Under the pieces are notes generated by a model. It was given only the letters and a program-made list of their open reading frames with translations, searched no databases and was not told where the DNA came from. A stretch of 64,000 nt of DNA, taken from contig CANQDK010000002.1 in NCBI GenBank assembly GCA_947591785.1, forward strand, positions 79,069 to 143,068. The letters are read 5' to 3'. The DNA is from an uncultured Clostridia bacterium. Its GTDB lineage: Bacteria > Bacillota > Clostridia > Christensenellales > UBA1242. This document shows positions 6,001-63,186 of the stretch, piece after piece; positions within the stretch are counted from its first letter, which is position 1; each line of letters begins with the position of its first letter. The translations under genes were made by a program, and so were the position numbers.

Positions 6001-9000
6001 CAAGACTTTCTGCATAGAACATCTTTGCAGAAAATTCTGTTGCCTTGAAGATGCCTTCTGGACTGTTTGGTTCAAGTCCAGGAACAACACCAACCTCATA
6101 TTCAAAGCCAAAATATTCTTTCTCATCACAAATTTGCAGATATGTCAACCCAGAAGTTGAACTGTCATTATAGAGGTTATAAACATATTTGTCTGTGTCA
6201 GAATAGCTGTTTGCAAGTGCATTTCGGTTTTCTTCATTGCCTCTTATGTAGAGTTTTCCGAGATTGTTTTCCAAATTTGGAGAATAGAGTTTAAAGACAT
6301 TTTTCACTTGAAGCATATCACTGTCAACATAAACTGTGTTTCCAGTAACACCACCAATCAAAAGGAAACGTATGTATTCATAAGAACCAGCACCTGCTCC
6401 ATCAGAGCCAATTCCACTGAGTGAGAACACTGGGTTTGCCAAATCTCCAGAAACTTTTCTTGAATCTTCAACAGCACCAGTTTGTTTGTAAATCACATAA
6501 GTATCGCGATTTTGTTGTGTTTGCCATGTGAACTGTCCATCTCTAATTTGGAATTGTTTAAGTTCCAACAAAGTCATTAAAAACATTTCCGACTTGCTGG
6601 ATAATGAATATTTTGTTCCAATCGCACATATTTGGAATTCTTTTGGAGCGGATCTTTCAATTTCATTTTCAAATTTCCCAAGCAAAGATTCTCCACTGTT
6701 GTAATTTATATAAAATTCCAAACTATCTCCATTTTCAGTCACACTCAATGTCGAGAAACTGGAAGAATTTGATAAACATTGTATTCTCCAACCGCTTGAT
6801 TGAATCAAACTGAAATATGCTTCTCCAATTTTAATGTAATAGCCTTCGGCATCTTTTTGGACATAACCTGATGAAATCTCATCATAAGTCCAAACCTTGC
6901 TCTTTTTCACAGTAACTTTCAAGACTGTTGTGTATTCTTGAGATTTTGTTCTGTCAATCTGTATGGTAACATCTGGCTCTTCATTAATGAAAATCTCATT
7001 TGTCCCTTTTGCGTTCTCATAACTATACATATAAGAATTAAGCGAAAATGCATTTCCAAGCAAACAATATTCCAACTTATATTTCCCTGCTTGTAAAGTG
7101 TTGAGACAGTCATCAATAAACAGTGCTGGCCCACCCAAACCTCTTGATGCTTTTTCAATTCTTTCATAAAAATTCATAAGAGTCGCCTTGCTTGAACCCA
7201 AAGTTGTGGCCTCAACCAATTCTTCAATTCTATCTCTCAAATTTCCTTTTGCGTTCTGTGAATAGAAATCAATAAGGCTCGACATCAGTTCAACAATTGG
7301 AATATCATAAGAGCGAGAATATCCTTTCACATCGGAATCTTCTCCTATTGGAGTGAATCTAAGTCTAAGATAGAGCATATTTTCTTCAAGCAAATCTTTC
7401 AAAGTAAATGTGAATGGCTCTTCAAAAATTGTGTTCTCACTTGCAAGTTCTTCTGCTATCATTGACAGACTTGTTGTTCCATCTGGCTGTTTTGTCAATA
7501 AATTGAAGAATTTTCCATCTTTATCCCAATCAATATAAAGCCTTCCTTTATCATCAAGATTGACAACTGATTCCTTAACTTGATTTCGTCTAACCATGAT
7601 AGGTTCACCATCAACTCCACCATAATAAGTGCGTGCAGAGGAAACAACTGACAAATTGTTTGTATCTTCACAAACTGCCTGCACTGCAACAAAAATACGA
7701 GTTTCATCACATGGCATTTTTGAAGTGTCAACTGTTGTCGATTTTGTCTTTATATATGCCCACGATGTTGGACTTTCGTCTAAAATGTTGGAAACAAAGA
7801 ATACATAATATTGCTCAGCATCAACACCAGCCCAACTCAAATTTCCTCCACGAATTATGATTGAAGAAACGTTTCTATAACGACTAAATTGGAATTTTTT
7901 GCCATTCTTGTCGGTTGAAATCCATTCCGAAACGCAATACAAATCTCCCTTTGTGGCAACTTTTGCAAACTCTACCTCAAACATTCCGGACTGCCCTTCA
8001 AGTTTTTTATTGTTAAAAACATGCTCAACAAGATTAATTGCAAAGGTGTCTGTTCCAAAATATGGATTTGCAAGAAGTTCTTCTTTTGAAACAAAAACAG
8101 AATCAATAAACTCGCCTTGCTTTAACTTGACATAGAATCCTGAAGTGATAAATCCGCTTTTATCAGCATCATCTTTATTATCAAACAAAACATAAGTGTT
8201 GACAAAATCTTCTTGAACTGTTCCGTCACCTTTTGATGCTGCATCTTTTCCAAGTTTAACAACTTCTTTAAAATATATATCTTCAATATATGAAAATTTA
8301 TATTCCTTTGGCTTTGACGCAAGATAAAGAGCTTCTTCCGTGCTTTCTTTGTATGCCCAGAATGTCAAACTCATGTTTGCGGACAATTCAATATTCCCCA
8401 CTTTTTCATTTAAGGCTGTCAATATATCCAAAAGCGAATACCTGAAATCAACTCCCAATCCAGAAGAAGACATCTCTCCATTTGTCAATTTGATTGAAAC
8501 AACTTCATTTCTGTCCAAACTGTTTCCGTTCTGCCCAACATAAAGGAAATTTGTATCGTCAAGAGTGTCCAAAGTGAATGTTATTCCATCTGGATTGTTT
8601 GGATTATATTGAATATCTAAAATATCATTGACTTTATAGAAACCAAACTCTCCATAAGAAGAATATGGCATTGAATCCAACACAAAATTTGCATGTGATG
8701 CAGGCCCTTCACCAATTATAACAATCTCAATATTGAAAGCCTGATAAATTTCTTCTTTCAAATCGATTTCAAGAACAACAGAAGTTGAATTAAGAACAGT
8801 CGTTGTTCTCCAAGCCTGAATTGGCCTTATTTGAGTTCCTTCAACAACAATATAACGATACATCAATTTTTGTCCTTCTTTAAGGTTGGAAAGATAGATT
8901 CTTCCCATTGAAATTGACACATCTTCTTTTTCAATTGGATTTCCAACTATGGTAGCACTGAATGTGCAATCGTGTGAATTGTTGTAATTTTCCCCATCAC

Positions 9001-12000
9001 CAACTGTGACGAGTTCAAACCAAACATCACAATCACCACTTTGCAATTCTAATTCAGAGAATTTTCCAGCACCAATCAAGTTTTCATAAGATTCGCCAAA
9101 AATGTCAAATAATTTGCGTTTGACATAATTTCCGCCTCTGCCACTATCATTAACATAAGAGCTGTCGGTTTCATAAGTGTATAAAAGTTCACCCTTTTCT
9201 CCATTTGAAAGTTTGTAGATTCTCAAAACATAACCTTCCGCATTATCCACAGCCTTCCAAATGAGAGACATTTCATCATCAAGACGCTCAATTTGAACAG
9301 TTTCCGAATCAACACGTTCAATTCTTCTCATCGTGAATGAAACTTCTTTTTCAACTGAAGAAACGTAGTATTTTGTTTGTGTTGAAATCACTTCTGTTTC
9401 ATGCGTTGCCATAACCTTCAAATTGAATTGCCCATTTTCCCAGTTGTCAGGAGCATCAAAGACAAATTCTCCATCAGCATTTGCTTTGACAATATTTATT
9501 TCAGCATTGTTCTTTACAAAATACGCAACTTTATTGTCTTTCCCACCAGTGATTTTAAAGCCATTTGATGCTCGAACAATATTTTCATCGCCAACACTTG
9601 CAAGCACTTCATAAGGTTCGCTTTCCTTCATTCCAGAAGGATTTGTTTGTGGGCCACCCACAGAAGCAAGAAAATATCTTGAATTTTCCGCACTGTTATT
9701 GACAAAGGCACTGACTTTGATTATTCCACCAGAAGAGAGATTTTCATTAAACCAAGAAGCCTGATTTTCGCCTAAATCATATTCAAATTGCCCCTCACTT
9801 CCAAGTTCTTCACCAGAGAAAGGCACAAAGAACGCTTTTGTAACTTTCACACTTGACAACGCATCATTATTGAAAATGTCAACCTTTAAAATAACGCCTT
9901 TTGCAAGTTCTTGAGCATATTCCGTATTATATGAAAACTTCACAACTTTGCTGTAACCTATTTGTTCTTCTTTAAATTCAACCGCTTCCAAATCATGAGC
10001 ACGTTTTAGTGTCAAAACCAAAGCTGAAGAAGGAATAAAGGCTTGAGCATTATCTCCTTCACTTACGGCAAAAATTTCAAATATTAAATCATGTTCAACA
10101 GAGAGATAGTTTGCAATTTCACTGCTTTCCAATGTAAAACTGTAAGTTTCGATTTCTTTTGAAACACTCTCCTTACGCAAAAATTCTCTTCCTGTTGATG
10201 CAACACGATAAATTTCAAACGTTCCAGTCTGATTGTAATCTCCCTTTAAAGAAATCTTAACATTAGGATATTGTGCATTAAGCGGATTTGAATCATCATA
10301 AACATATTCCAACCCACCAATTTCTGGTATGGCAAGCTTTTGAGTTTTTGCAGATGCATTGTATATGTAATGATTACATTCACCCACACCTTCATCTTCG
10401 GTGTTCAAAAGTTTTTGTGCTTTTGCAAAATAAATATCCCCTGCAACAGCAGAATATGGTTTTAAATGTGCGGACAAACTTACTGTGATTTCTCCAGCAT
10501 TTAACACTTTCAAATCTTCAAGGAGTTTTTGAGCATTTTTATCTTCTGCATCTGTCAAGTTGACACTTGTATTTTCAGTCCTATATGTTACTATTTTGTT
10601 TAAACTATCTTTAAAGATTAAAACATATTCCAAAGATGGCAGATTCTTTTCAACTCCATAAGGATTCCAAGAAACTATGTTCCCTGCAAAATTGATTTCA
10701 TCATTTGAAGGTTTAACATCTTCTCCATTCATTTCTTTCACAGTCCAAGATGCAACCTCACTGTCAATGTAATAGGTTGTGCAGAGAAGTTTTCCTTGCT
10801 CTTCTTGTTCAGGATTTTCTCTTTGCTCAAGTTTTTTACCAAGAATAGTGAAATCGTATTTTGTTCCAGTTTCGTCAATTTCCACACTGCCTGAAAGTTT
10901 ATCTTCACTTATTGTTCTTCCAGAACTTTCAACCTTAACCGCCTTTGTATAATCCGCCTCTGGAGCGTTATACAAAAGTTGAGCAGAGTCTGTCAAAGTC
11001 ACTTTATCAAGCGATTTGAGTTTGTAAATCTTGACGTAAGATGATTCATTTGATGTTAAGAATTGTGGGTGCGAAACTTTAATATAGAATGTGAAAAATT
11101 TCTCCGCTTCCTTATATTCGCTTGTAAAATTGGTGAATGTGTTTGCAGAAACTTTACCAATCAAGGTGTCGTCACCTTTTTCATTAAGCAAATAAATCTC
11201 ATATTCAACATTTGTAAGTTGTTGACTGTTTAATGCCTCTCCGCCAACCGTGGCAGAATTCCAAGAAAGAGTGTATGTTTGTCCTTCAGCACTGAATGTT
11301 GGAACAACTTCGTCAAATTTCTTAACTTCTATTGTTGTTTCAGAACTTGCACTCTTTGCAAACAAAGAGGAAATCTGAACAAATTTTGAATCATCATTAT
11401 CTCTTTCAATGTTTTGATAAGCAAAAGCACGAAATTTGATTGAATCGGCTTGTGCAAATTCTGCACTTAAATCTTCAACTTGGTTAAGTTTGTCTATGAA
11501 ACTTTGAATGTTGATTGAAATTTTATTATCTTCACTTTCTTCAACATAATCCACTTTAGGCCCAAAATCATGAGAATATCCATCAACAGACACGCTTTGA
11601 GTGTCAAATCGAACAGTGTAGGATTTTGAATCCCCATTCACTCCCACACAAACAATATCAACAACATAATATTTTGTCGCACTTGATTGTTCATGATTGA
11701 AAACAAGTTTTCCATTATTATATTCAAAATTTGTTGGAGTTGACAAGCGTTGAAAATCAATAGTTGATTCACCGCTTTCCAAGAATGTTGTCAAAACTTC
11801 TTGCGAATCTTGATTTTCCTGTCCAATATCAAAGTAATTTCCATCTATGTTTGAACCTTTCAAATTTATATTGAGTGAGAATTTAACATAATTTCCTTCT
11901 TCGTCAATAATTTTGATAGTTGTGTCTTCACTTGTGTTTGAAAGAAGTCTACCATTTTGAGAAACAACAATTTCGCTGACACCATCTTTTTTTCTGATAG

Positions 12001-14554
12001 TAACATTCTCCGTGCGATTGTCAAGTTCGATGTCTGCATAATGAACCTTTGCCAAACGAGTGACTTGCAAAACAATTTCGCTTGTCAAATAAAGTCTTGA
12101 ATCTGTATTTTTTGCTTGAACTTTCAGTTTAACAGCTCCTTCGTTGTCAAAGCCTTCTGTCAACACAAGTTTTAAACTTTCAGAACCTTCCACAATAGCA
12201 GTTTCTGCACATTTTGTTGAAATATCATCTGAAACAACAGAATAAGCATCAACAGATGTCACTTTGTCGTTAAGGTTTTTAAGTTCGACAAAATATCCTG
12301 TTGCTTTTGTCATGCCCTGTTCTTTCAAACTTTCATCATATCCAAACTTAAAGTTTTCTGCATCATATTCAAATTCAATCTTTTTCGCAATGCAAATTTT
12401 TTGTTTAAGTCCTCCAGAAGACAAGGTGACATTTTCGTTATTGCTGATTGCAAAAACTTCGACATAGAAATATCCTTCATGCGAAAAAGTAAAATTGTTT
12501 GTCGAACAAGTTTCAATTGTCATTTTTTTATCAGGAAGCCCATTTTCAACAACACATTCTTCAAAAGAATTCTTATCTGGCTTGCCATCATCTGTCAAAA
12601 ATTCATAATATTCCAGACGATATTCATTTGCTCCTTCAACTTGCCCCCATGTGTATAACATTTGTGTTTCATCACTTCGCGAAACTGATGTTGGAGTTTT
12701 CAAAATTTGTAAGGATTTTTCTGTTGATGACTTAATAACAAAATTTTCTTCTCCAGCAATCGCAACCACACGCAATCTGTATGCTTCTTCAACAGGCAAT
12801 ATTGCAACTTCAATTCGGGAAGAAAGTTCGATTTCAACCTGCCCCTCTTCTAAAAGTTTCACTGTATAAAGGGAGTCATCAACCTTTTCAAAAGTTTCTC
12901 CATTCCATCTTTGCAACTCATAATTGGTTGCATTTTCCACAGCCTTGAAAGAGAAAACAGATTTCTCATCTTTGTATTTGTGCAAAATGCCTTCTTTAAT
13001 TTGTGCAAGTTTAATAAAAGTCAATTCTTCACTTAGTGCAGAGTTTAAAACAAAAACAGAATTCTCACCAATATTGTTGTCCTGTTGCACAGGAATTTGT
13101 TTCAATTTTACAAGCTTTTTCCCAACTTCACTGAAGTTCAAACTTGTTTCAACAGTTTGTGCACCTTGAGAGAATCCCTCTCCAACAATTCCAAGTCCGT
13201 CGATTCCAATTTTTGTTGAAACAAGAGGAGCATTTGATGTGAATGTTAAATTAATCAAATTTCCATCAATATCATTTTCCCTTGCTGTCACAGTTTCAAT
13301 TTTTGGCAATTTATAGATTTTTTCAAATTCGACAGAATCGCTGTGATAGAAAAACTCTCCTGCTGAGCCTTTGTTAGAATTAACAGCAACAACAGACAAT
13401 TTCCATTCACCAGATGCAAGGTTTGGTAAATCAGTGTAAATTTCTGTCTGTTCCTTTTTCTCAAAAACATAGGCGGAAGAGTTCACATCAGTGGAAGCAG
13501 TGAAAACATATTTATCCGCATTTTCATCAGTAACAACTTTAAAAAGTCCGCCTTCAACAGCAGAAAAATTATATGAAACGTTTGGAGTGTTAAGTTTTTT
13601 GATTTTGAGAATTTCACTCTCTCTTGCCCATTTTTCTCCAGTTGAATCATAAACAACAACTGAAACTTCTGCCGATTGTCCCTGTTCAATTTCATCAAAA
13701 TAGTTTGACAAATCCATAGTGGTTTCTGTTTGATAGTCACCAAGTTCAATTCCGTTCATGCGAACTTTATATTTTGCATTTTCGCCAGCAACAACACTGC
13801 TCCACGACAATTCTCCTGTCTCTCCATTCCAATTAAGTCCACCATTTTCAATCGTAAGTTGAGGCATAAATCCAAAAAAGAAAGTTGACGGAGTCACCAC
13901 TTCGCTATCATCAAAATGTCCAAACTTTTTCGCTTTAAAAGAAAGATGATATTCTCCAATCTCTGTTAAAACGAGTTTGTTTGGAGTTTCATCGTTTTCT
14001 GCAGAAACTTCTTTATAAAAATCGGAAGTTCCTTCAGTTTCGTCTGGATTTTCCGCATTATGTAAAATTTTTTGCCCTTCAATTATATATGTTTTAGCAA
14101 AAGTAGGTTTGTCCTCAACGGAATCAGTTTCAAACATTGCAAAACTTTCATCCCACGTAATAACCGCAATTTCATTCTCCTGTTCATCTTTTTCAATGCT
14201 CATTTTAAAGTTTGATGGAGCTTCAAAAGGTTTGCCAACAACAACATTCATAGATGCAAGGGAATTTTTGTTGTATGTTGCAAAAACTTTTGTTGTTCCA
14301 TATTTCTTTGCCTTAAAACCGTTTTCAACCTTGTCAAAAATTGTCCCATCTGAAAATTGAAAATCAATCTGCCCTATATCAGCATTTTTCACATTTAGAT
14401 AACTTCCAAAATCCACAGTTTTGTCATCAGAAAGATAAACAACCAATTCATCTTGTGTGAACTTTGCTTCGACTCCTTTAAATGAACACGCCATAAGCAT
14501 ACCTGACAATGCAAGCGTGAATACTGACATTAAAACAGCACAAAACTTTTTCAT
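3026..14554 (-). CDS. Giant (3,842 aa) surface lipoprotein, adhesin-like, with a C-terminal GLUG-motif-like beta-helix
   Basis: Uninterrupted 11.5-kb ORF. The N-terminus MKKFCAVLMSVFTLALSGMLMAC is a signal peptide plus lipobox, with an SD-like GTGAGG 5 nt upstream. The body is beta-rich and Ig/FN3-like in composition. The last ~400 aa start with GTDENPYIITNSTQFKNI and carry repeated xxG(L/I)(A/V)xxNxGxI segments (VSGLAIINNGTI, IAGLVYTNYSTI, IAGIAITNSNGKI). Confidence 0.8.
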   Translation of the reverse strand: MKKFCAVLMSVFTLALSGMLMACSFKGVEAKFTQDELVVYLSDDKTVDFGSYLNVKNADIGQIDFQFSDGTIFDKVENGFKAKKYGTTKVFATYNKNSLASMNVVVGKPFEAPSNFKMSIEKDEQENEIAVITWDESFAMFETDSVEDKPTFAKTYIIEGQKILHNAENPDETEGTSDFYKEVSAENDETPNKLVLTEIGEYHLSFKAKKFGHFDDSEVVTPSTFFFGFMPQLTIENGGLNWNGETGELSWSSVVAGENAKYKVRMNGIELGDYQTETTMDLSNYFDEIEQGQSAEVSVVVYDSTGEKWARESEILKIKKLNTPNVSYNFSAVEGGLFKVVTDENADKYVFTASTDVNSSAYVFEKKEQTEIYTDLPNLASGEWKLSVVAVNSNKGSAGEFFYHSDSVEFEKIYKLPKIETVTARENDIDGNLINLTFTSNAPLVSTKIGIDGLGIVGEGFSQGAQTVETSLNFSEVGKKLVKLKQIPVQQDNNIGENSVFVLNSALSEELTFIKLAQIKEGILHKYKDEKSVFSFKAVENATNYELQRWNGETFEKVDDSLYTVKLLEEGQVEIELSSRIEVAILPVEEAYRLRVVAIAGEENFVIKSSTEKSLQILKTPTSVSRSDETQMLYTWGQVEGANEYRLEYYEFLTDDGKPDKNSFEECVVENGLPDKKMTIETCSTNNFTFSHEGYFYVEVFAISNNENVTLSSGGLKQKICIAKKIEFEYDAENFKFGYDESLKEQGMTKATGYFVELKNLNDKVTSVDAYSVVSDDISTKCAETAIVEGSESLKLVLTEGFDNEGAVKLKVQAKNTDSRLYLTSEIVLQVTRLAKVHYADIELDNRTENVTIRKKDGVSEIVVSQNGRLLSNTSEDTTIKIIDEEGNYVKFSLNINLKGSNIDGNYFDIGQENQDSQEVLTTFLESGESTIDFQRLSTPTNFEYNNGKLVFNHEQSSATKYYVVDIVCVGVNGDSKSYTVRFDTQSVSVDGYSHDFGPKVDYVEESEDNKISINIQSFIDKLNQVEDLSAEFAQADSIKFRAFAYQNIERDNDDSKFVQISSLFAKSASSETTIEVKKFDEVVPTFSAEGQTYTLSWNSATVGGEALNSQQLTNVEYEIYLLNEKGDDTLIGKVSANTFTNFTSEYKEAEKFFTFYIKVSHPQFLTSNESSYVKIYKLKSLDKVTLTDSAQLLYNAPEADYTKAVKVESSGRTISEDKLSGSVEIDETGTKYDFTILGKKLEQRENPEQEEQGKLLCTTYYIDSEVASWTVKEMNGEDVKPSNDEINFAGNIVSWNPYGVEKNLPSLEYVLIFKDSLNKIVTYRTENTSVNLTDAEDKNAQKLLEDLKVLNAGEITVSLSAHLKPYSAVAGDIYFAKAQKLLNTEDEGVGECNHYIYNASAKTQKLAIPEIGGLEYVYDDSNPLNAQYPNVKISLKGDYNQTGTFEIYRVASTGREFLRKESVSKEIETYSFTLESSEIANYLSVEHDLIFEIFAVSEGDNAQAFIPSSALVLTLKRAHDLEAVEFKEEQIGYSKVVKFSYNTEYAQELAKGVILKVDIFNNDALSSVKVTKAFFVPFSGEELGSEGQFEYDLGENQASWFNENLSSGGIIKVSAFVNNSAENSRYFLASVGGPQTNPSGMKESEPYEVLASVGDENIVRASNGFKITGGKDNKVAYFVKNNAEINIVKANADGEFVFDAPDNWENGQFNLKVMATHETEVISTQTKYYVSSVEKEVSFTMRRIERVDSETVQIERLDDEMSLIWKAVDNAEGYVLRIYKLSNGEKGELLYTYETDSSYVNDSGRGGNYVKRKLFDIFGESYENLIGAGKFSELELQSGDCDVWFELVTVGDGENYNNSHDCTFSATIVGNPIEKEDVSISMGRIYLSNLKEGQKLMYRYIVVEGTQIRPIQAWRTTTVLNSTSVVLEIDLKEEIYQAFNIEIVIIGEGPASHANFVLDSMPYSSYGEFGFYKVNDILDIQYNPNNPDGITFTLDTLDDTNFLYVGQNGNSLDRNEVVSIKLTNGEMSSSGLGVDFRYSLLDILTALNEKVGNIELSANMSLTFWAYKESTEEALYLASKPKEYKFSYIEDIYFKEVVKLGKDAASKGDGTVQEDFVNTYVLFDNKDDADKSGFITSGFYVKLKQGEFIDSVFVSKEELLANPYFGTDTFAINLVEHVFNNKKLEGQSGMFEVEFAKVATKGDLYCVSEWISTDKNGKKFQFSRYRNVSSIIIRGGNLSWAGVDAEQYYVFFVSNILDESPTSWAYIKTKSTTVDTSKMPCDETRIFVAVQAVCEDTNNLSVVSSARTYYGGVDGEPIMVRRNQVKESVVNLDDKGRLYIDWDKDGKFFNLLTKQPDGTTSLSMIAEELASENTIFEEPFTFTLKDLLEENMLYLRLRFTPIGEDSDVKGYSRSYDIPIVELMSSLIDFYSQNAKGNLRDRIEELVEATTLGSSKATLMNFYERIEKASRGLGGPALFIDDCLNTLQAGKYKLEYCLLGNAFSLNSYMYSYENAKGTNEIFINEEPDVTIQIDRTKSQEYTTVLKVTVKKSKVWTYDEISSGYVQKDAEGYYIKIGEAYFSLIQSSGWRIQCLSNSSSFSTLSVTENGDSLEFYINYNSGESLLGKFENEIERSAPKEFQICAIGTKYSLSSKSEMFLMTLLELKQFQIRDGQFTWQTQQNRDTYVIYKQTGAVEDSRKVSGDLANPVFSLSGIGSDGAGAGSYEYIRFLLIGGVTGNTVYVDSDMLQVKNVFKLYSPNLENNLGKLYIRGNEENRNALANSYSDTDKYVYNLYNDSSTSGLTYLQICDEKEYFGFEYEVGVVPGLEPNSPEGIFKATEFSAKMFYAESLGSSASFVKGEAETTSSYYIKNLKCVDSKTGEETSGNIIVKSDVGSLPAIMLDKIDEESLKIENGLINFKPVSERKMDETSYTIPTDALDVYRIRIERYKTSDVEGADTRVGTEKDIETFYTSAKSNGNVVFDFLNLKENPELDTEDVLYKVYVQATALQKGLSSVPLVEGGYAGGSAKYYNYNYGILMSEPVVLKGIKRIKPIDENSLKVNENGLLTWTYRPSETSVAGETLSPDNIEYYYRFVVADVNGNEYSGIKTITMEDGVYTITFEESGDIPVGTNNLQVYVTVGEFNPNSLLVNSVARTKEFTKLEGVYATNFEVMSVSGVEYLSFERYFSDFSNKTNTIIAHFEDLNMMNGAVTKDVTFTNNENKLYIFKNNVNLGDVSWPEGYVQDYVIITKNDISKVWFEVRCEGKLNSNASESFMLHRTDVEDVNIVWDSVKQEFSWNYQFNSFNSKVKAEKLKYVYSANEGCLLYGIDGDFENPSDKTVTKGEVFEIAEDDRDKDYLKIVKDDEYFFVKRSDVTRTIEDDIENGVIKTQDFDGSVLVKILETQGDYSIVEIENVPYRVATTRIEKPTFVIEATYIIGDAQTVRTYNSKESSFKPTIISTVKLKVRVKLNQTSIQSDEKEYFDENDEDGNGSPDSIEFNLFESGQGTDENPYIITNSTQFKNIKYRLSKELTEYSENGIQHRDSSKYYFSIQVVDGEELELGSFSGVLIDGVFDGVLRGNGTTITYTSTDVVELKEEDTISIEASNSAISNGSGGPFKFRNVTALFREIKQDAEVRNLHIKAHFEKEQYVDNHSLVSGLAIINNGTIDSVVIDEFSTNFVGYIASNTLITMSYSGIASINRGTLRNCVFTAQTEIVEERAQNIFIAGLVYTNYSTIEGGENCNTSISSSLSIHITRAGSGGIQIAGIAITNSNGKINARNNASISVLADSSSNSITCYAGGVVVLQKGNLDLSTDSTTTPTVTGIYNATVDKIYATRRAGG

Positions 14555-21998: not shown

Positions 21999-23306
21999 TT
22001 ATTCTTCAACTTTGTCAAAACCAGCAGTATTCATTAAAGTTGGAACACGCCCTGTCAAAGGACTAATTGAAAGGAGAAGAACGTTTTCTCTATTATAGGA
22101 TTCAAATTTGGCGAGTTCATCATTAACAAAAGTTATGACATTTTTTAATACCTGTCCATTTTCAGTGAATGTAAGAGTGAAAACTTTTGTGTTGTCAGTT
22201 CTTTCTCTCTGGATTTTCAATTCAGCGTAAGGGTGAGCAATTGAATAAATATTGATGTATTCTGCAATATCAAAATTTTCAAAATCAACATTCAGCGAGC
22301 CTAATTTATAACATAATGCTTTTTCAAGAGCCTGTTTTGCTCTTTGAATTGGAGAGTTGTTTCCAGAAGCAATACTTTCATATTCATTAAAGATTTTATG
22401 AGTCAATTGCGATTCGTCATATTGATAATACAAGAATCCGTTTTCAAACCAAATTTCTTCGTTGCTCACACCTGCGGTTGTGCTGTCTGAAACTGTGAGA
22501 TAGGCAACTTTTGAAACCCCTTCAATAGCAACTTGAGCATTAAATTCAAAGTTACCTTTTGAATAAATCGAATAGCCTGTTGAAGTGAAATTGTTTTCCT
22601 TTCCTGAAATATAGTTTAGAAAATCATCTTTAGTTATGATTGAACCATCTTCATAGTCTGCAAAACTTGGAAAATTTATTTCAGAAGAATAGGTTGAAAT
22701 TGTGATTTTACGGTTGCCAACACTGTATTCTTCAATATTGTTTGTGATAGAAGCAATTTTTTTGTTGATAAACTTAACATTGATAGTTTTCTTTTTAGTC
22801 AAGTCTTTAAGTGAAATTTCAAAATTAACTTCATCATCTTCAACAACTTTTTTTAAGGAGTTTTCATTTCCAATCTTTTCCATTTCTTTAATTTCTGAAT
22901 TAACATAAGGAAAAGCATCACGATGAATATCAAACAAGAAATTGATGTCCTGCCATTCGTCCTCATAAAAAGCCATTTGTTTCTTTTGATTTGTTTGAGA
23001 ATTACTATAATAAATAATGTCGTTTTTTAAATACCATTGTCTTACAACGGTTTGTGAGCCAACCGCTTTGTCTTGTCTAACTGAAAATTGTTGACTGTTG
23101 TCGTTTTTATCAAATGTGAAATAAGCAATCAATCTTTCATTGTCAGAAATGCTTTCATATTTCATAGTGTTAAAAATTGTTGAAACACCTTTACTTTTTG
23201 CATAGTCCCTGAAAGATTCAGAAACGCCACCGCCACAGGCAGTAAGCATCAAACCAAGTCCAATTGTAAAAAATAAGGTTGCACAAATTGTAAAGAATTT
23301 TTTCAT
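21999..23306 (-). CDS. Hypothetical lipoprotein (435 aa)
   Basis: MKKFFTICATLFFTIGLGLMLTACGGG is a signal peptide plus lipobox. A GAGAGGGG SD lies upstream. I recognise no other motif. Confidence 0.7.
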   Translation of the reverse strand: MKKFFTICATLFFTIGLGLMLTACGGGVSESFRDYAKSKGVSTIFNTMKYESISDNERLIAYFTFDKNDNSQQFSVRQDKAVGSQTVVRQWYLKNDIIYYSNSQTNQKKQMAFYEDEWQDINFLFDIHRDAFPYVNSEIKEMEKIGNENSLKKVVEDDEVNFEISLKDLTKKKTINVKFINKKIASITNNIEEYSVGNRKITISTYSSEINFPSFADYEDGSIITKDDFLNYISGKENNFTSTGYSIYSKGNFEFNAQVAIEGVSKVAYLTVSDSTTAGVSNEEIWFENGFLYYQYDESQLTHKIFNEYESIASGNNSPIQRAKQALEKALCYKLGSLNVDFENFDIAEYINIYSIAHPYAELKIQRERTDNTKVFTLTFTENGQVLKNVITFVNDELAKFESYNRENVLLLSISPLTGRVPTLMNTAGFDKVEE

Positions 23307-23424: not shown

Positions 23425-25029
23425 TTATTCTTCTTCAGCAACAACTTCGTAAACGTTGCCTTCGCCACCTTTTTGTTGTGCCTTATAACCTTGTTTCACA
23501 TAAGTTGATTTGTCATTTGTATTTGGAGTTTCTGGATTAAATTCTGTGAATTCCCCACCAGTAACTTCAATTTTTGTCCTATCAATAGCTTTTGCATTGT
23601 CATATATATTCAAAGCCCAATGATTACTATTTGTTGAATTGAATTTTCCGCCTTTGATTTCGGCAGTTCCATTGCTAACCAAAACAACTTCTGCAACACT
23701 TTCAAATTCTCCACTTTCAATCACAAGATGTCCTGCTCTATCTTCATCTTCAAAGAAAGGTTGAGCACCGACAAGAAAGAGAGCAACAGTTTGGTTTGTA
23801 GAAACAATTTTTCCTGTTTGTTGTGTGTCTTTGATAGTCAATGTTGCACCTGAGCAAATAACAATTTTAGAGTCTGTGCTTAATGTGTGTCCGTTAAGAT
23901 CAAGAGTTATGTTGCTATTTACACTATCAAGTTGAATCATAGAAGTGTTAAAACTTATATTTTTGTCAAGAACAACAGTTTGAGTTTTAGGAGCAGTAAG
24001 AGCCTCTCTAAGGCCAGCTTCTGTTCTTACATGTGCTTTTTCATCTTCATATTTCTTTACAGTATAAGTTGATTGACTGTCTTCAACATAGTAACCATCA
24101 GCAAGATAATCAATTCCACCATTCACGCTTTCTGCTTTGTTGTTTTCTGGGTTAAATCCTTTGAATGTTCCGCCTTTAACAATAATCTTTGCAGTTTTGT
24201 TTTGATAATTTGCATCAAGGCAGTTCAAAACAAAAGTCTTATCTTCTGTTTGAATGTCAAATTCTCCGCCATTGATTGTGCAAATTCCTTTGAAAACATA
24301 AATTGTATGTCCATTTCCACTATATTTTCCACCATCGATTGTCAATTCTCCGCCATCAACATCAACAGCAAAGCAATCATTTTCCTTTGCCACAACTTCA
24401 CCTGTTGTGCCTTTCAATGTCAATTTCCCGCCTTCTTTGACAGAAATAAGAGACCATTTGTCTTGTGAGTGATCTTCAACATCAGTATAAATATCTTTTT
24501 CATTTTTAATTGTATGAGTGTCCAAATCAAGAGTAAATTCTTTATTTACAGCAAAGGTATCTGACAAAACAACATCTCCTGTCAATTTTGCAGATTCGTA
24601 GTGTTCAAGTGCTATTTTAAGCTCTTCCTCGCTTGAAACAAGGGCAACACCACCTTCTTGTTTCAAGTTGACGGTAACTACATATTCTTTTGTGAATGTT
24701 GTGTTTTTGTCAAATTCATAACTTACTGTGACTGTGTAATCTCCAGCTTCTGGAAATTCTTGGCCAAGAGTAACAGTTGTTTGATCTTTAACTGCACTTG
24801 CAGTCACTTTGTCATATTCTTTTTCTTCCAAAGCCTTCTTAGATTTGTTGTCATAAACTCCATTGATTTTCAAACTCTCTTTTGTGAATGTATTTCCTTC
24901 AACAAAAGTTGTGTGAGTGCTTTCGTCAATTTCAATTCCTGTAAGTTTTGGTTCACCACACGCAGTAAGAACAATCCCTCCCACTAAAAGAAAACAAAAG
25001 CAAGCCAAAATTGATAAAATCTTTTTCAT
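23425..25029 (-). CDS. Surface lipoprotein (534 aa) with an Ig-like N-terminal domain and beta-helix-like repeats
   Basis: MKKILSILACFCFLLVGGIVLTACGEP lipobox and an AGGAGG SD. It has repeated G-G-x-(L/F)-T-I/x-G-G segments (GGKLTLKG, GGELTIDGG, INGGEFD, VKGGTFKGF, IKGGKFNS, VTGGEFTEF). Confidence 0.75.
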   Translation of the reverse strand: MKKILSILACFCFLLVGGIVLTACGEPKLTGIEIDESTHTTFVEGNTFTKESLKINGVYDNKSKKALEEKEYDKVTASAVKDQTTVTLGQEFPEAGDYTVTVSYEFDKNTTFTKEYVVTVNLKQEGGVALVSSEEELKIALEHYESAKLTGDVVLSDTFAVNKEFTLDLDTHTIKNEKDIYTDVEDHSQDKWSLISVKEGGKLTLKGTTGEVVAKENDCFAVDVDGGELTIDGGKYSGNGHTIYVFKGICTINGGEFDIQTEDKTFVLNCLDANYQNKTAKIIVKGGTFKGFNPENNKAESVNGGIDYLADGYYVEDSQSTYTVKKYEDEKAHVRTEAGLREALTAPKTQTVVLDKNISFNTSMIQLDSVNSNITLDLNGHTLSTDSKIVICSGATLTIKDTQQTGKIVSTNQTVALFLVGAQPFFEDEDRAGHLVIESGEFESVAEVVLVSNGTAEIKGGKFNSTNSNHWALNIYDNAKAIDRTKIEVTGGEFTEFNPETPNTNDKSTYVKQGYKAQQKGGEGNVYEVVAEEE

Positions 25030-25106
25030 AAAACCTCCTAAATTTTTCTTATGCAGTGATTTTCAATTTATTTCTTTTTTCTTGTTACTCCTGCACTTTC
25101 AAAGTG

Positions 25107-25137
25107 ATTCTAGCATAATGGGGGGGGGTATTGTCAA
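25107..25137 (-). promoter_or_regulatory. Near-consensus promoter with a C9 homopolymer in the spacer (candidate phase-variable promoter of the 534-aa lipoprotein)
   Basis: The minus strand reads TTGACA-ATACCCCCCCCCATTATGC-TAGAAT, with TGC giving an extended -10. The spacer is 19 nt. The G9 run on plus (25120-25128) is the longest G/C run in the window. Confidence 0.55.
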
Positions 25138-25357: not shown

Positions 25358-25387
25358 CCATTTATAAACCAACCATTTATAAACCAA
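25358..25387. repeat. Perfect 15-bp tandem duplication CCATTTATAAACCAA x2
   Basis: Units at 25358-25372 and 25373-25387 are identical. They lie ~115 nt upstream of the Cys/Gly-rich peptide gene. Confidence 0.8.
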
Positions 25388-25501
25388 TTATAAAAACCAC
25401 ACTGAAAATTTTGTCACACTTTTCTTAACTTTAAAATAAATTGATAATGTGCAAACGATTGCACGAAAAGTCGTACATAAGAAATTTTTTAGGAGGCACA
25501 A

Positions 25502-25729
25502 ATGAACTTTTTTGGAGGCTCAAATTGTAGCGAAGTTGGAAATGGTTGCTCTGGCAATGGCGGTTGCGATTGCTGTTCTCTTATCTTCCTTCTTTTGCTC
25601 TTACAAAACTGCGGTTGCGGTGGTGGATTCGGCGGTTTCAAAGGCGGGCAAATCTGCATTGACTGTGAAACACTGCTCCTTTTGATTTTATTGTCTGGCT
25701 TCGGCAATGGCTGTGGTTGTGGCAAATAA
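25502..25729 (+). CDS. Small Cys/Gly-rich hydrophobic peptide (75 aa), resembling tiny-TM YjcZ-type sporulation peptides
   Basis: TTAGGAGGCACAA precedes the ATG and a clean terminator follows. The sequence has 11 Cys and 20 Gly in 75 aa, arranged as G/C-rich, LIFLLLLL, G/C-rich, LLLLILL, GCGCGK. Confidence 0.6.
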   Translation: MNFFGGSNCSEVGNGCSGNGGCDCCSLIFLLLLLQNCGCGGGFGGFKGGQICIDCETLLLLILLSGFGNGCGCGK

Positions 25730-25747
25730 TTTGCAGTTTTGAAAAAC

Positions 25748-25770
25748 TCCCCTGTTTTAGGGGATTTTTT
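25748..25770 (+). terminator. Rho-independent terminator of the Cys/Gly-rich peptide gene
   Basis: TCCCCT (25748-53), a 5-nt loop, AGGGGA (25759-64), then TTTTTT. Confidence 0.7.
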
Positions 25771-26014
25771 CTTTTTGCTTAAACCTAATCCGATTTGAAA
25801 ACATTTTGAAAAAGAACCTATTTTTTTGAATTTTTCGCTAAAAATTTCATTTTTTTTATAATTTTTTGACATTTTTAATCATTTTTTTCTTGATTTTATA
25901 TTATTTTTGTTGTATCATAATATTGTGTTAGGGAATTGTGATTTTTTTACCATGCTCTTCAAATTATATCAAACAAAAATTCAACCATTCCAAAATTCGT
26001 TCAGGAGGAAATTT

Positions 26015-27791: not shown

Positions 27792-29798
27792 TCAATCTTC
27801 CATTCCTAAGTATTTAAACACCAACTCTTCTGCATTTGACTTCGATTCCCCACATTGATAATTGCTCACTATAAACATGAAGCACTCTTCCTTATTACCA
27901 TTGGAAAGGACGTTTTCTTCCATGTTCACGACATATCCAGCTCTTGAATTAATAAGTTGGAAATCTCCGCCATATCTACTTGCAAGAATTGAAAATCTTA
28001 AATAGATTATTTGCCCATCTACGACAGATAATGTCACTTTTTCATCATTTTTTAATTCTTTATAAATCGGTTCCGCTTCCGCATCATCTGTTTCAAAATT
28101 TTTAGTTGCATAAAAAACTTTTGTGTAAGGAACTAAAATATTACTATTAACAGTGTTGGTCAATGTGATATATTTTTTAAATCTAACAAAGTTATCAAAT
28201 ATAAAGTCTGTATCTTTAGATGTCACAAATTTAATATAAAAATTGTCATATTTCCCAGTCGATTTATTAAATATTGCATTAAAAACATATCCATTTCCCA
28301 ATTCATACGAAACATTTTCTTTGGTTGTGAAATTAGCGGTTTGTTCATTGAGAACTTCTTTCACATTAAGAAGTTTCTTTATCGGCTCTTGTGCAACTTG
28401 AATTGAAATATCATAGTCATATAAATCGTAACCAAACATATATGCACTGTTATAACTGTCATATTCAAAATTCCAGACTATTGCATTTGTCAGTTCTTCA
28501 TTTGTGAAAATTGTTCCATCTGAGTCCTTGGATAAATATGGTTTTAATTCATTTTCACCATTTATCGTTTTAAAAGTTGGATTAAAAGATTCCTTTAATT
28601 TTTCTTCATCCTCTCTTCCAACTGAATATGTCAATTTGTGAGTGTTTTCAAGAGTGACTCCAACAACATTAATCTTAAATTCATCATAAATTTCACCTTG
28701 GATATCATCACACCAGCTTTGTGGAGTTCTCGCCTTGAAGTTATAAATCAAGGAATCTTCCTTTTCTTCTGTTGGTAAAACTTGTCTTTGATTGATATAA
28801 ACTGCCAATTTGTCATAGTTTGCAAAAGCAGTATTCACTTTCTTAACAGTAAAATTGAAATTTTCAGAATATGTTATTTCATCTGGCAGTCCAGTGATTT
28901 CACAAACCAAATTTTCGTCAGGCTTATGAACCACAAATTTTCTATATTCAATTTTACTAAAATCAACAGAAATTATCCATTCGTCTTTTTGGGAAATCTT
29001 TTCTCCCATATCAACAACATAGTAAACATATTGTCCATTAGCCCCTATTTGATGAACCCCTGAAACAGACATCTTAATTTCTCCATCTTTAGACTGAAGA
29101 ACAAATGGAGAATTCTCCACACTAAGATTGTTTTGTGGAATTGTAAAAATGTCACCATCTTTAAATCTTAATCTGAAACAACGATATTTGTTTAATGCGG
29201 CGTCAGTTTCAACACCATCATAGTCATGCGTAAAACTCTTCCCCGTTGAACCAGAAAGAAGAGTTCCAAAATTGCTATAACTCCCATCTTCTTCATTTTC
29301 AAAATTAATTTCTGTTAATTTTAATTTTTTATCTGTTTCAGAATCGGTTTCTTCATTATAAAGTTTTTGAAATGTAAAAGTTGTCGAAATTCTTTTAACA
29401 CCACTCACAATAATATCATAGTTGTCTGCAACACGTCCAAACAGGAAATTGGCGTAAAGTGTTTTCCCACTTTTTAAATCATAATTCTTATAGTTGAGAT
29501 TTTGCTGTTTGCCATTTACTAAAACTGAAATTCTAGATAAATCATAACCATCTTCTTCACATCTCAATTCCACAGTTATATTTGAAAATTTATCAACAGT
29601 GTAAACTTTTTTTGAATCAACAATATTTCCGTCCAAAACTCTATCAATTTTTTCATTTAAAAGGACGTTAACAAAAACAGGGCTAGCGCTGTTATCAACG
29701 GTTATCTTAAACGTTGATTGTCCAAAACAACCTGTCAAAGTCAGCCCTGACACAAAAAACATAAAACTAATCGCAAGAACAAAAATCAACTTTTTCAT
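27792..29798 (-). CDS. Hypothetical lipoprotein (668 aa)
   Basis: MKKLIFVLAISFMFFVSGLTLTGCFGQ lipobox with a GGGAGA SD. I recognise no enzymatic motif. Confidence 0.7.
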   Translation of the reverse strand: MKKLIFVLAISFMFFVSGLTLTGCFGQSTFKITVDNSASPVFVNVLLNEKIDRVLDGNIVDSKKVYTVDKFSNITVELRCEEDGYDLSRISVLVNGKQQNLNYKNYDLKSGKTLYANFLFGRVADNYDIIVSGVKRISTTFTFQKLYNEETDSETDKKLKLTEINFENEEDGSYSNFGTLLSGSTGKSFTHDYDGVETDAALNKYRCFRLRFKDGDIFTIPQNNLSVENSPFVLQSKDGEIKMSVSGVHQIGANGQYVYYVVDMGEKISQKDEWIISVDFSKIEYRKFVVHKPDENLVCEITGLPDEITYSENFNFTVKKVNTAFANYDKLAVYINQRQVLPTEEKEDSLIYNFKARTPQSWCDDIQGEIYDEFKINVVGVTLENTHKLTYSVGREDEEKLKESFNPTFKTINGENELKPYLSKDSDGTIFTNEELTNAIVWNFEYDSYNSAYMFGYDLYDYDISIQVAQEPIKKLLNVKEVLNEQTANFTTKENVSYELGNGYVFNAIFNKSTGKYDNFYIKFVTSKDTDFIFDNFVRFKKYITLTNTVNSNILVPYTKVFYATKNFETDDAEAEPIYKELKNDEKVTLSVVDGQIIYLRFSILASRYGGDFQLINSRAGYVVNMEENVLSNGNKEECFMFIVSNYQCGESKSNAEELVFKYLGMED

Positions 29799-36474: not shown

Positions 36475-38469
36475 TTAGAAATCAAATGGATTGGTTGATT
36501 TAAGTATCTTCTTGTTTCTCATCTTTATATCATAATAAACTTTTTGAGTATCCAAGCTTTTCATTATTCCAATGGCTGGTTGGGCATTTTTAACATAGAA
36601 AAGCGGAACTTGGTCATTTCGAGTCGCTTGCAATTTCATTGGATTATATCTAAACAACTTAACAATAACTGTTCCAAATGGAATCTGCCCCAGTTCGTAT
36701 GGTGTGATAAGTGCACGGTTTGAACGTTGAACACTGGTTTGAGTTGTTTTTTCTTCATAATTTTTGTTATTTTTAGAAATTGTTGCCTCTTCATGAATAA
36801 GCTGAACTTCACCACATTGTTTTGAAAAACTCTCCAGTGTTGGCTGATCATCAGTTCCAAGGAAAATCTGTGCATTGCAGTTTCCAAGAATTGTTTTTGC
36901 TGTGTCCTGTCCATATTTTGTTTCCATTTGTGTATATGACTGAACAACCATTTCAAATAAAATGTTTCGTCCACGAGAAACTGTTATCATACTGTCAAAT
37001 TTTGGAATTGGTGGCAAGTTTCCAAATTCGTCAAGCAAGAAATAAACATGGTGTGGAAATTTTTTGCTTGGATATGATTGAGCTTTATCAACCAATCTCT
37101 TGTAAAGTTGCGATATTCCCAAAATCGCAAGATTATGTCTTTCTTCACGATCATCTGGAATAACAAGATAAAGCACTGTTGGTTTACTTGTGAAATCATC
37201 AAAATTTATATCGCTCTGTGAAGTCAAATAGGCAATTCCTATATCATTCATAAAAGAAATTTTTCCGTTCAAAACACCCATATATGATTTTGTTGTGTTT
37301 GGTGCGTTGTTGATGACTGCCGAAGTCAAATTTTGAACAATTGATGTTGCTTCATCTCGCCCTTCCAAAAGATATTTTCTCACAGTGTCAAATGGAGCGT
37401 CTGCATCAGGGTCACGAAAAGTTGCAATCTTATAGAGATTAAAGAAATTGAATTTTTCTTTTGTCATGCCAAGTTCTGGATTAAGACTGTCCTCAAGCAT
37501 TGCCAAAGCACAACCATACAAATAGTCTTGAGCACCTTCTTCCCATGTTGGATCGGTTGCATTTTTTGACTTTGGAGCAATTGTGTTGCAAATCTCTTTT
37601 AATTCATTTTGTGCTTGAGCACAATAAACTTGTTCTGCCGAGTTTACAGCAACCCTCAATTCGTCTTCAGTTGGATATGCAATGCCTTCAAAACCAAACC
37701 ATTCCTTACCATATTTCGCACCAGGAATTTCTTTAAAACCAAATTCTTTTGGCTTTGCACCATTTGTGCATTTTTTTATGTTATTTTTACAATTTTTGCC
37801 TTTGTGATACATGTCAAATGCATGTTCCATTGGATTCCAACGTGTTGACGAAAATGGATCACGCAAATCCAAAGTAATAACACGATATCCCTCATCTTGC
37901 ATAATTCTGCTTGTCTTTTGATAAAGCTCTCCCTTAGGATCGGATACCACCATACAAGGTTTCTCAGCTGTGTGTGCTAAAATTCTTATTGTTGGAATCA
38001 AACATATGGAAGTTTTACCTGAACCTGTTGTTCCTATGATAAGACAATGATACTCGTCCTTCATCGCAATTTGGTATTTTCCATTTTCCATAACATTTCT
38101 AAAAACAATTCCAGTGTTTTTCAACTGAGGGAGCTGATTCCATGTTGTTGCGATAAGCCCAAACTGTTTTGGAATATCCTCTGGTTTTAACCATTTTGCA
38201 TTAAAGGACAAATCCATTTCTTGCCCATCTGAAGTTTTACCAGTTGATTTTGCATTTGGCCTGCTGTCAACCTTCTTCGGATTAATAAGCCAAAAAATTC
38301 CTAATGCCAAAACAAAGCCAACAGCAATTCCAACAAAAGCATAATCTGCTAAGAAAGCATCAAGGAATGATGGTGGCTCTTTTGTGAAGTAAAAAATTGC
38401 CACACCACCAAAATAACCAATAATAACACCAATAATTATAAAAACAAAAATATTCTTCTTAATCTTCAT
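36475..38469 (-). CDS. Type IV secretion/conjugation coupling protein (VirD4/TraG/TraD family), orphan
   Basis: Two N-terminal TM helices. Walker A IIGTTGSGKTS, then VVSDPKGELY, then Walker B VYFLLDEFGNLP. AAGAGGA lies upstream of ATG 38469. No other conjugation genes are in the window. Confidence 0.85.
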   Translation of the reverse strand: MKIKKNIFVFIIIGVIIGYFGGVAIFYFTKEPPSFLDAFLADYAFVGIAVGFVLALGIFWLINPKKVDSRPNAKSTGKTSDGQEMDLSFNAKWLKPEDIPKQFGLIATTWNQLPQLKNTGIVFRNVMENGKYQIAMKDEYHCLIIGTTGSGKTSICLIPTIRILAHTAEKPCMVVSDPKGELYQKTSRIMQDEGYRVITLDLRDPFSSTRWNPMEHAFDMYHKGKNCKNNIKKCTNGAKPKEFGFKEIPGAKYGKEWFGFEGIAYPTEDELRVAVNSAEQVYCAQAQNELKEICNTIAPKSKNATDPTWEEGAQDYLYGCALAMLEDSLNPELGMTKEKFNFFNLYKIATFRDPDADAPFDTVRKYLLEGRDEATSIVQNLTSAVINNAPNTTKSYMGVLNGKISFMNDIGIAYLTSQSDINFDDFTSKPTVLYLVIPDDREERHNLAILGISQLYKRLVDKAQSYPSKKFPHHVYFLLDEFGNLPPIPKFDSMITVSRGRNILFEMVVQSYTQMETKYGQDTAKTILGNCNAQIFLGTDDQPTLESFSKQCGEVQLIHEEATISKNNKNYEEKTTQTSVQRSNRALITPYELGQIPFGTVIVKLFRYNPMKLQATRNDQVPLFYVKNAQPAIGIMKSLDTQKVYYDIKMRNKKILKSTNPFDF

Positions 38470-38554
38470 AAAATCCTCTTTCAATTCTATTCAATTTTTA
38501 TTTTATATCTAAAATTAAAAAAAAGCAAGAAAAGAGAGATATTTTCAAATAAAT

Positions 38555-62734: not shown

Positions 62735-62820
62735 CACAGACCTCTCATAAAATTAAAAAAACAACTTCAACATGACGGCTCAGTTTTGCTAAATAAACTA
62801 TGCATCAATAATACATATTA

Positions 62821-62850: not shown

Positions 62851-63186
62851 GTTTTTGCATAACTCAAATGCGTTATTTTACTATTTAAAGCGAAAGATTC
62901 CGTGCTTAACTTTATCGCAAGCAAATAATGTTGTTTTTAGATGAACACATATCTAAAAAAAGTGTGTTTTTATTCTCAAAATAAATTGTCAAATAGAATT
63001 TGGAAGTAAATTCAACACATATTTTTCTATTTTTGTTAAAAAATATAAATGTAATCAATTTATAAAATCTCGCAAAATTATTTTTATTTTTTTTGAAATT
63101 ATTTAAAAATTTGTTGACAGCGGGGGGATTTGAGCTATCCTAATTATAGCATTTAGATTGCAAAATTTATAAAAGGAGAAAAAAGG

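Follow-up and report, generated by a model that had tools for sequence, protein, structure and literature searches.

A run of nine C residues separates the -35 and -10 hexamers of a promoter that precedes a lipoprotein gene in an uncultured gut Clostridia bacterium. We conclude that this simple sequence repeat (SSR) probably controls the promoter, so that slipped-strand mispairing sets how strongly a surface lipoprotein is expressed. A first-pass annotation of the 64 kb stretch of DNA analysed here (the window) had put forward such a slippage switch, and the proposal is supported by the finding of both C8 and C9 forms of the tract, by retention of the tract at the promoters of an orthologue and a paralogue, and by the nature of the target, a fast-evolving, adhesin-like lipoprotein.

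A poly-C tract in the promoter of a lipoprotein gene

The minus strand of the window from 25137 to 25107 reads TTGACA-ATA-CCCCCCCCC-ATTATGC-TAGAAT. The features of this region are listed below; L005 is the orthologous locus, L085 a paralogous locus, L089 an allelic locus, and L031 and L037 are more distant loci, all of which are described later.

25169-25140, minus strand: weaker promoter-like site, TTGAAA-18-TAAAAT, within the A/T-rich region; not conserved in L005
25138-25169, minus strand: A/T-rich, UP-element-like region upstream of the -35 hexamer; A-rich stretches also precede the -35 in L005, L085, L031 and L037
25132-25137, minus strand: -35 hexamer TTGACA, full consensus; TTTGACAA is kept in the L005 orthologue and the L085 paralogue
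25120-25128, minus strand: C9 homopolymer in the spacer (G9 on the plus strand), the proposed slippage site
25113-25115, minus strand: TGC, extended -10 (TGn); TGA at the equivalent position in L005, L085 and L089
25107-25112, minus strand: -10 hexamer TAGAAT, 5/6 consensus; TACAAT in L005, TAAACT in L085, TAGAAT in L089
25030-25100, minus strand: predicted 5' UTR of approximately 70 nt, from a putative transcription start, with a conserved block, TCACTGCATAAGAAAA, that is kept in L005
25039-25034, minus strand: Shine-Dalgarno sequence AGGAGG
25029-25027, minus strand: start codon ATG
25029-24958, minus strand: part encoding the signal peptide and the lipobox LTAC; an Ig-like N-domain and two beta-solenoid modules come after it
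23425-25029, minus strand: open reading frame of the target gene, encoding a 534 aa lipoprotein with the N-terminus MKKILSILACFCFLLVGGIVLTAC/GEPK

The TTGACA and TAGAAT hexamers, the 19 nt spacer between them and the TGC of the extended -10, all noted in the first-pass annotation, were confirmed in the window sequence. Nine of the 19 spacer nucleotides belong to the C tract, which lies wholly between the hexamers, the arrangement found in promoter-spacer phase variation of the fetA, porA and vlp type. The -10 hexamer is 77 nt from the ATG of the lipoprotein gene, and the predicted folding of the 5' UTR is modest (z = -2.1).

The window contains 24 hexamer pairs near consensus with gaps of 14-21 nt, of which several are intragenic, and intragenic chance pairs with a 19 nt gap also exist, e.g. 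at 9120 and 54946. As similar pairs arise by chance inside genes, the hexamers alone are not significant. It is the location upstream of a gene, together with the TGn and the conservation across species, that makes this a credible promoter. The comparison promoters with 17-18 nt spacers that had been offered as a contrast to the 19 nt spacer stood for three sites (29907-36, 38555-83 and 62821-50; at least 11/12 matches), while the fourth, at 14618-47, fell below 11/12.

Rarity of the tract

This G9/C9 is the sole G/C run longer than 6 nt in the 64 kb. The next longest is a single G6 at 63122, and the other C runs are no longer than 5 nt. The number of G or C runs of at least 9 nt expected in the window is approximately 0.015 under a base-frequency model (G 0.002, C 0.013) and approximately 0.02 under a first-order model (G 0.0014, C 0.018), which bears out the earlier statement that the tract is the longest G/C run present and is unexpected in DNA of low GC content. 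The tract is thus over-represented, and it is also retained at the orthologous position and in related copies (C8 in L005; C9 in L085 and L086; and L089).

The G6 at 63122-63127 (plus strand) directly follows a TTGACA, in the arrangement TTGACA-GC-G6-ATTTGAGC-TATCCT with a 16 nt spacer (region 63115-63186). This site precedes another lipoprotein gene (63187-63765, plus strand; N-terminus MKKKLLTSLGCLALAVAGAFGLVGC/G...). The G6 is unchanged in three other assemblies, as expected of a short run.

Tract length in assemblies of the same strain

Proteins identical to those of the window were found in the ENA assemblies ERZ27249451, ERZ27060145 and ERZ27249440 and in the Logan entries ERR10663690-93 and DRR855141. 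An alignment of the window with four assemblies over 7.6 kb has a single variable column, the C run. Over 21.3 kb (approximately 12.0-33.3 kb of the window), tract length is the sole difference from L219-L222, four public assemblies of this strain, and the 18 A/T runs of 8-9 nt in this segment are identical in all five sequences. Six of the seven sequences, the window included, have C9, and ERZ27249451 has C8, which reduces the spacer to 18 nt; ERR10663690 and ERR10663691 both have C9. The comparison of lengths across genomes suggested in the first-pass annotation thus did reveal variation between near-identical genomes, C8 in ERZ27249451 against C9 elsewhere, in the form of one variant among seven consensus assemblies. 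These lengths are the assembly consensus of short-read metagenomes at approximately 8x coverage, in which the C8 may be a homopolymer consensus error, and some of the ERZ assemblies and ERR runs possibly come from the same samples, so that their independence is uncertain.

Further alleles were sought via neighbouring proteins (P0125, bPH_2 and MscL). Most of the contigs returned end before the promoter, and ERZ27249440 and ERR10663692 were gained in this way. A search of JGI metagenomes for the exact flanks with a variable gap between them returned no match.

Two contigs with 2-3x coverage begin exactly at G/C runs, L089 in the poly-C tract (positions 1-3) and L232 at the G6 (positions 1-6). 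Coverage or assembly thus seems to fail at G/C homopolymers in this A/T-rich genome, a technical caveat for tract lengths taken from metagenome-assembled genomes (MAGs). The end of L089 at the tract was considered as a sign of length heterogeneity and rejected, because the low-coverage L232 likewise stops at a run, the G6, that is invariant; the contig ends at the tract therefore look technical.

Conservation in an orthologue and a paralogue

When all the ABC-anchored loci were searched by tblastn, a syntenic orthologue of the lipoprotein was found in one alone, L005, a rabbit-gut MAG (CANQNH01) whose ABC-transporter protein is 89% identical (aa) to that of the window. The gene order in L005 matches that of the window: a 668 aa lipoprotein, MscL, bPH_2, a small peptide, two lipoproteins and the ABC gene. 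Its promoter is TTGACA-AGAACT-CCCCCCCC-GTGA-TACAAT, with C8 and an 18 nt spacer. The approximately 360 nt between the small-peptide gene and the start of the lipoprotein gene are poorly conserved overall between the window and L005, and the conserved islands in them are TTTGACAA at the -35, the C run, the TGn and -10, and the leader beside the ribosome-binding site.

The tract is also found upstream of P0002, an 849 aa paralogue that is 45% identical and lies in a different genomic context in GCA_947588355.1 and ERZ27249433. Here the promoter (L085/L086) is TTGACA-AATT-CCCCCCCCC-ACATGA-TAAACT, with C9 and a 19 nt spacer. The contig that carries P0121, a 97% identical allele (L089), starts inside the tract and reads CCC-GTTATGA-TAGAAT. 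Two other family members, P0003 and P0004 (57% and 56% identical), are without the tract. A distant family member, P0010, is present on many contigs.

The main alternative, which we judge improbable, is that the promoter is real and static, that the C run is merely an unusual, G/C-rich spacer, that the C8/C9 difference is a sequencing or assembly error, and that expression is fixed or regulated in some other way. It would account for a single deviating sequence of seven, from an assembly of approximately 8x coverage, and the contigs that stop at G/C runs indicate that such runs are technically difficult. A static element would also give the observed pattern in related loci, where the tract is almost always 9 nt and varies narrowly between 8 and 9. 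However, a homopolymer is the least stable means of holding a spacing, and it is hard to see why a static consensus promoter would keep the poor spacing of 19 nt. The 18 A/T runs of similar length in the same 21 kb show no assembly errors, and the spacers of 16, 18 and 19 nt seen at promoters of this design are all one or two slips away from the optimum. The tract also persists in L005 and L085 while the neighbouring spacer bases have been replaced, which argues for selection on the run itself.

The lipoprotein

The target of the promoter had been assigned to the surface lipoproteins, and the assignment holds, as the protein has a signal peptide and a lipobox and its model is an adhesin-like beta-solenoid; exposure at the surface is presumed from these features. 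The lipoprotein has no family in Pfam or NCBIfam and no sequence match in the PDB, and no relative was found among the GTDB species genomes. Its C-terminal repeats recur in more than 1000 database relatives; most of these are unnamed and many have another type of signal peptide. In the AlphaFold2 model (mean pLDDT 82), the signal peptide is disordered, and the rest forms an Ig-like beta domain and two beta-solenoid modules. In a fold search, the best PDB match was 5nxk, the binding region of a serine-rich-repeat (SRRP) adhesin from Lactobacillus reuteri (E 4.6e-4), and the next matches were pectate-lyase, pectin-methylesterase and tailspike folds.

The lipoprotein is only 49% identical to its L005 orthologue, whereas MscL, bPH_2 and the ABC protein are 88-93% identical. 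Two neighbouring lipoproteins share 40% and 47% identity with their L005 orthologues. Low lipoprotein identity beside conserved neighbours is the pattern that would be expected under diversifying selection on surface proteins. Together, the lipobox, the SRRP-like fold and the contrast between 49% and 88-93% identity point to a product that is presumably exposed at the surface or takes part in interactions with host or phage.

A model for expression control

The promoter appears built to be strong, as it has a consensus -35, a TGn, a near-consensus -10 and an A/T-rich upstream region. In sigma-70/sigmaA promoters a spacer of 17 +/- 1 nt is optimal and one of 19 nt is poor, a penalty that a TGn softens. 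The poly-C run would set the hexamer spacing, with C9 giving 19 nt, C8 giving 18 nt and C7 the 17 nt optimum, and replication slippage would add or remove one C at a rate far above that of background mutation. Because of the optimum at 17 +/- 1 nt, C9 would be poor and expression low or OFF; C8 would be intermediate and C7 maximal. Slippage would therefore keep a clonal population always mixed in lipoprotein level, and mixed expression could serve as bet-hedging against antibody, phage or niche-specific selection on the adhesin-like protein. We infer the dependence of transcription on spacer length from general knowledge of sigma-70/sigmaA promoters, and the switching rate, its reversibility and the selective agent are presumptive. 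Since the weaker site at 25169-25140 might give basal transcription, the switch is likely to be graded, a 'volume control', rather than strictly ON/OFF.

G/C runs in related genomes

The best matches of the ABC gene are in MAGs of uncultured Clostridia, and the organism was placed through this gene, with Christensenellales-like Clostridia. When the ABC gene was used to recover related loci, matches in other gut MAGs were 73-77% identical (aa), including one of 74% in a Candidatus Caccovivens sp. Caccovivens is GTDB genus UBA11517, of the family UBA1242 and order Christensenellales (PMC8035907). Unrelated Bacillota (Bacillus, Lysinibacillus) were among the 80 loci recovered, and the low-GC subset amounts to 737 kb. 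In this subset, G/C runs of 4, 5, 6, 7, 8 and 9 nt number 894, 151, 12, 1, 1 and 3, respectively; the counts fall steeply with length and then show a second mode at 9. All four runs of at least 8 nt (L005, L031, L037 and L054) directly follow TTGAC(A/T). The expectation for runs of at least 8 nt in the related loci is 2.1 under a Markov-1 model, against four observed, which by itself shows no enrichment. As this figure is insufficient alone, the argument rests on the empirical length distribution and on the promoter context.

The promoters concerned, with one from a Christensenellaceae MAG, are as follows.

L031: TTGACA-AATA-C9-GAT-TAAAAT, spacer 16 nt
L037: TTGACA-ACT-C9-GCGA-TATACT, spacer 16 nt
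L054: TTGACT-TTTGC-G9-TATAAT, spacer 14 nt
L049 (Christensenellaceae MAG): TTGACG-C-G9-ACGTGG-TATAGT, spacer 16 nt, 45 nt upstream of a lipoprotein gene

L031, L037 and L049 thus have the same promoter design at other genes, in more distant relatives identified via the ABC gene. The spacers of the assembled promoters of this design are 14, 16, 16, 16, 18, 19 and 19 nt, and none is at the 17 nt optimum. A metagenome scan for TTGACA-N3-6-C(>=8)-N-TAnnnT returned at least 120 loci from many habitats. Among the loci listed, 18 of the 34 open reading frames that start no more than 120 nt downstream have a signal-peptide-like N-terminus, compared with 67 of 806 control open reading frames, where the signal-peptide call is a crude heuristic and the controls include spurious open reading frames.

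In higher-GC relatives, G9-G11 runs are found inside or at the ends of coding regions. A G9 lies at the 3' end of an open reading frame for a MarR-like protein upstream of an ABC exporter in the cultured Pumilibacter muris and P. intestinalis (L035:7929 and L043:1642), and at codon 35 of a MarR-like open reading frame in the Christensenellaceae MAG (L049:7597). A G11 is near the C-terminus of a histidine kinase (L052:3168). These coding-region runs are possible frameshift-type contingency loci.

A second alternative, which we regard as very unlikely, is that the C run is a recognition or structural element, either the site of a poly-C- or poly-G-binding regulator or a melting barrier, and that regulation is physiological. 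A hint of a longer motif is that G, GCG or GTGA follows the tract in L005, L031, L035, L037, L043, L049 and L054. Against this reading, both orientations of the run exist: with respect to transcription it is poly-C in the window, L005, L031, L037 and L085, and poly-G in L049 and L054. It is also found inside coding regions of relatives, which suits a mutational device better than an operator. An Rfam search found nothing that would correspond to such an element, and the C8/C9 polymorphism would be unexplained. We know of no regulator that binds poly-C or poly-G DNA of this kind.

A broader form of the slippage proposal, which we offer tentatively and hold to be less likely true than false, is that G/C runs of approximately 9 nt are contingency loci throughout a lineage of small-genome, mostly uncultured Christensenellales-like gut Clostridia (UBA1242/Caccovivens, Pumilibacter and Christensenellaceae relatives) and make up a 'phasome'. 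Promoter tracts directly after the -35 would then grade the expression of fast-evolving beta-solenoid lipoproteins, and tracts in coding regions would frameshift regulators such as the MarR-like gene and the histidine kinase.

Comparison with known phase-variable promoters

Meningococcal opc is reportedly subject to phase variation through a poly-C promoter spacer. Gonococcal fetA (frpB) has a poly-C run between the -10 and -35, and a promoter-spacing repeat is present at porA (PMC5320596, citing Carson 2000 and van der Ende 1995). The window promoter resembles those of Neisseria fetA and porA in having a G/C homopolymer between the hexamers, a surface-protein target and a length that varies between strains; in Neisseria, slippage by single bases alters the spacing and grades transcription, and by analogy it would do so here too. 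The Neisseria systems differ in that they belong to Gram-negative pathogens and control outer-membrane proteins unrelated to the window lipoprotein. The fetA tracts are usually longer (C10-C14), whereas only C8 and C9 are seen here, and the present case is known from sequence alone.

Among the mycoplasmas, the vlp lipoprotein promoters of M. hyorhinis have a poly-A tract and the promoter spacer of M. mycoides vmm has a TA repeat (PMC10502178). The likeness lies in the low-GC monoderm host, the lipoprotein targets and the repeat in the promoter, and switching in the window would follow by analogy. However, the tract is poly-C here rather than poly-A or TA, and the window lipoprotein is unrelated to Vlp or Vmm. 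While the vlp genes are a clustered family with near-identical 5' regions, the three related promoters found here share a design and not a sequence. We therefore do not place the locus among the Mycoplasma Vlp/Vmm systems, given its poly-C tract, its Christensenellales-like Clostridia host and a protein with no Pfam or NCBIfam family.

In Bordetella pertussis, the fim2 and fim3 promoters contain a poly-C tract of approximately 13-15 C, the length of which changes expression by spacing the site of an activator (BvgA) from the -10. The window shares with fim2 and fim3 a poly-C tract in the promoter of a surface-structure gene, and an effect of its length is proposed by analogy. As a consensus -35 is present, no dependence on an activator is evident here, unlike in Bordetella. 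Homopolymeric tracts in B. pertussis are covered by PMC1891110. In Campylobacter jejuni, which also has a low-GC genome, poly-G/C contingency loci of approximately 8-11 nt are hypermutable and are both intergenic and intragenic (PMC8355987). Rare G/C runs in a low-GC genome are common to both cases, and relatives of the window organism carry coding-region runs of G9-G11. The Campylobacter tracts are mostly intragenic frameshift switches, whereas the focal tract here would act on promoter spacing.

Promoter-spacer slippage switches are textbook examples of phase variation in pathogens of the genera Neisseria, Haemophilus, Bordetella and Mycoplasma, and work on phase variation in commensal Firmicutes of the gut has dealt mainly with DNA inversion. 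In a full-text literature search, nothing surfaced on promoter-spacer slippage switches in Christensenellales-like Clostridia. The mechanism is already known elsewhere, and the present locus would be a further case of it, in Christensenellales-like gut Clostridia. If the slippage proposal is correct, the adhesin-like lipoprotein family would count as a variable surface antigen in an uncultured gut lineage, metagenomes could be searched for more such genes with a simple signature (TTGACA, 3-6 nt, then C8-9 or G8-9), and single-base differences between MAGs at such tracts may be biology and not error. If the more tentative, lineage-wide proposal also holds, repeat slippage would, alongside DNA inversions, contribute in a major way to surface variation among commensal gut Firmicutes. 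Pumilibacter muris and P. intestinalis, which are cultured relatives with G9 tracts, would open the idea to experiment.

The surrounding genes

Three lipoprotein genes (21999-23306, 23425-25029 and 27792-29798, all on the minus strand) encode proteins that are 40-49% identical to their L005 orthologues. They look like a cluster of putatively surface-located, fast-evolving proteins, of which one alone has the poly-C promoter. The gene for the 435 aa lipoprotein downstream has a promoter-like site of its own at 23361-23334.

On the other side of the promoter, a small open reading frame (25502-25729, plus strand) encodes a 75 aa, Gly/Cys-rich peptide (MNFFGGSNCSEVGNGCSGNGGCDCC...LLLLILLSGFGNGCGCGK); AGGAGG precedes it, and there is a terminator-like hairpin at 25748-25764. 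In the comparison with L005, no other block between bPH_2 and the lipoprotein is as well conserved, and the L005 peptide, of 72 aa, is nearly identical. The peptide has no NCBIfam match; we take it to resemble the tiny YjcZ-like sporulation or membrane peptides. The 127 aa open reading frame on the opposite strand (25489-25872, minus strand), which is called in some assemblies, is probably a shadow of it.

The lipoprotein gene and the divergent small-peptide gene have a leader motif in common, ..CATAAGAAA(A/T)TTT(T)TAGGAGG, at 25040-25064 and 25465-25489. The motif adjoins the ribosome-binding sites, is kept in L005 and was returned by the repeat search as a 25 nt imperfect inverted repeat. 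It could be a translational or a sporulation-sigma element. These repeats (72% complementary) bracket the promoter, and each arm is immediately 5' of the ribosome-binding site of one of the divergent genes. That they delimit an invertible segment of approximately 400 bp that switches the promoter between the lipoprotein gene and the small Gly/Cys peptide gene is exceedingly unlikely. We rejected this reading because the repeats match poorly, their perfect core being just 9 nt, and such pairs arise by chance in A/T-rich DNA; because the orientation is the same in all seven sequences; because none of the adjacent genes encodes a recombinase; and because the shared leader motif is a simpler explanation.

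Also in the intergenic region, upstream of the lipoprotein promoter, is a perfect 15 nt tandem duplication (CCATTTATAAACCAA x2, 25358-25387) that is not conserved in L005. Rfam matches in the whole window were two tRNAs only, and neither the leader nor the intergenic region contains a known RNA element. Elsewhere, the window contains a giant open reading frame of 3842 aa (3026-14554, minus strand), a gene for a type IV secretion coupling protein (TraG/VirD4-like; 36475-38484, minus strand) and one for a 1153 aa TIR-domain protein (59276-62737, minus strand), which may be surface, mobile-element or defence genes.
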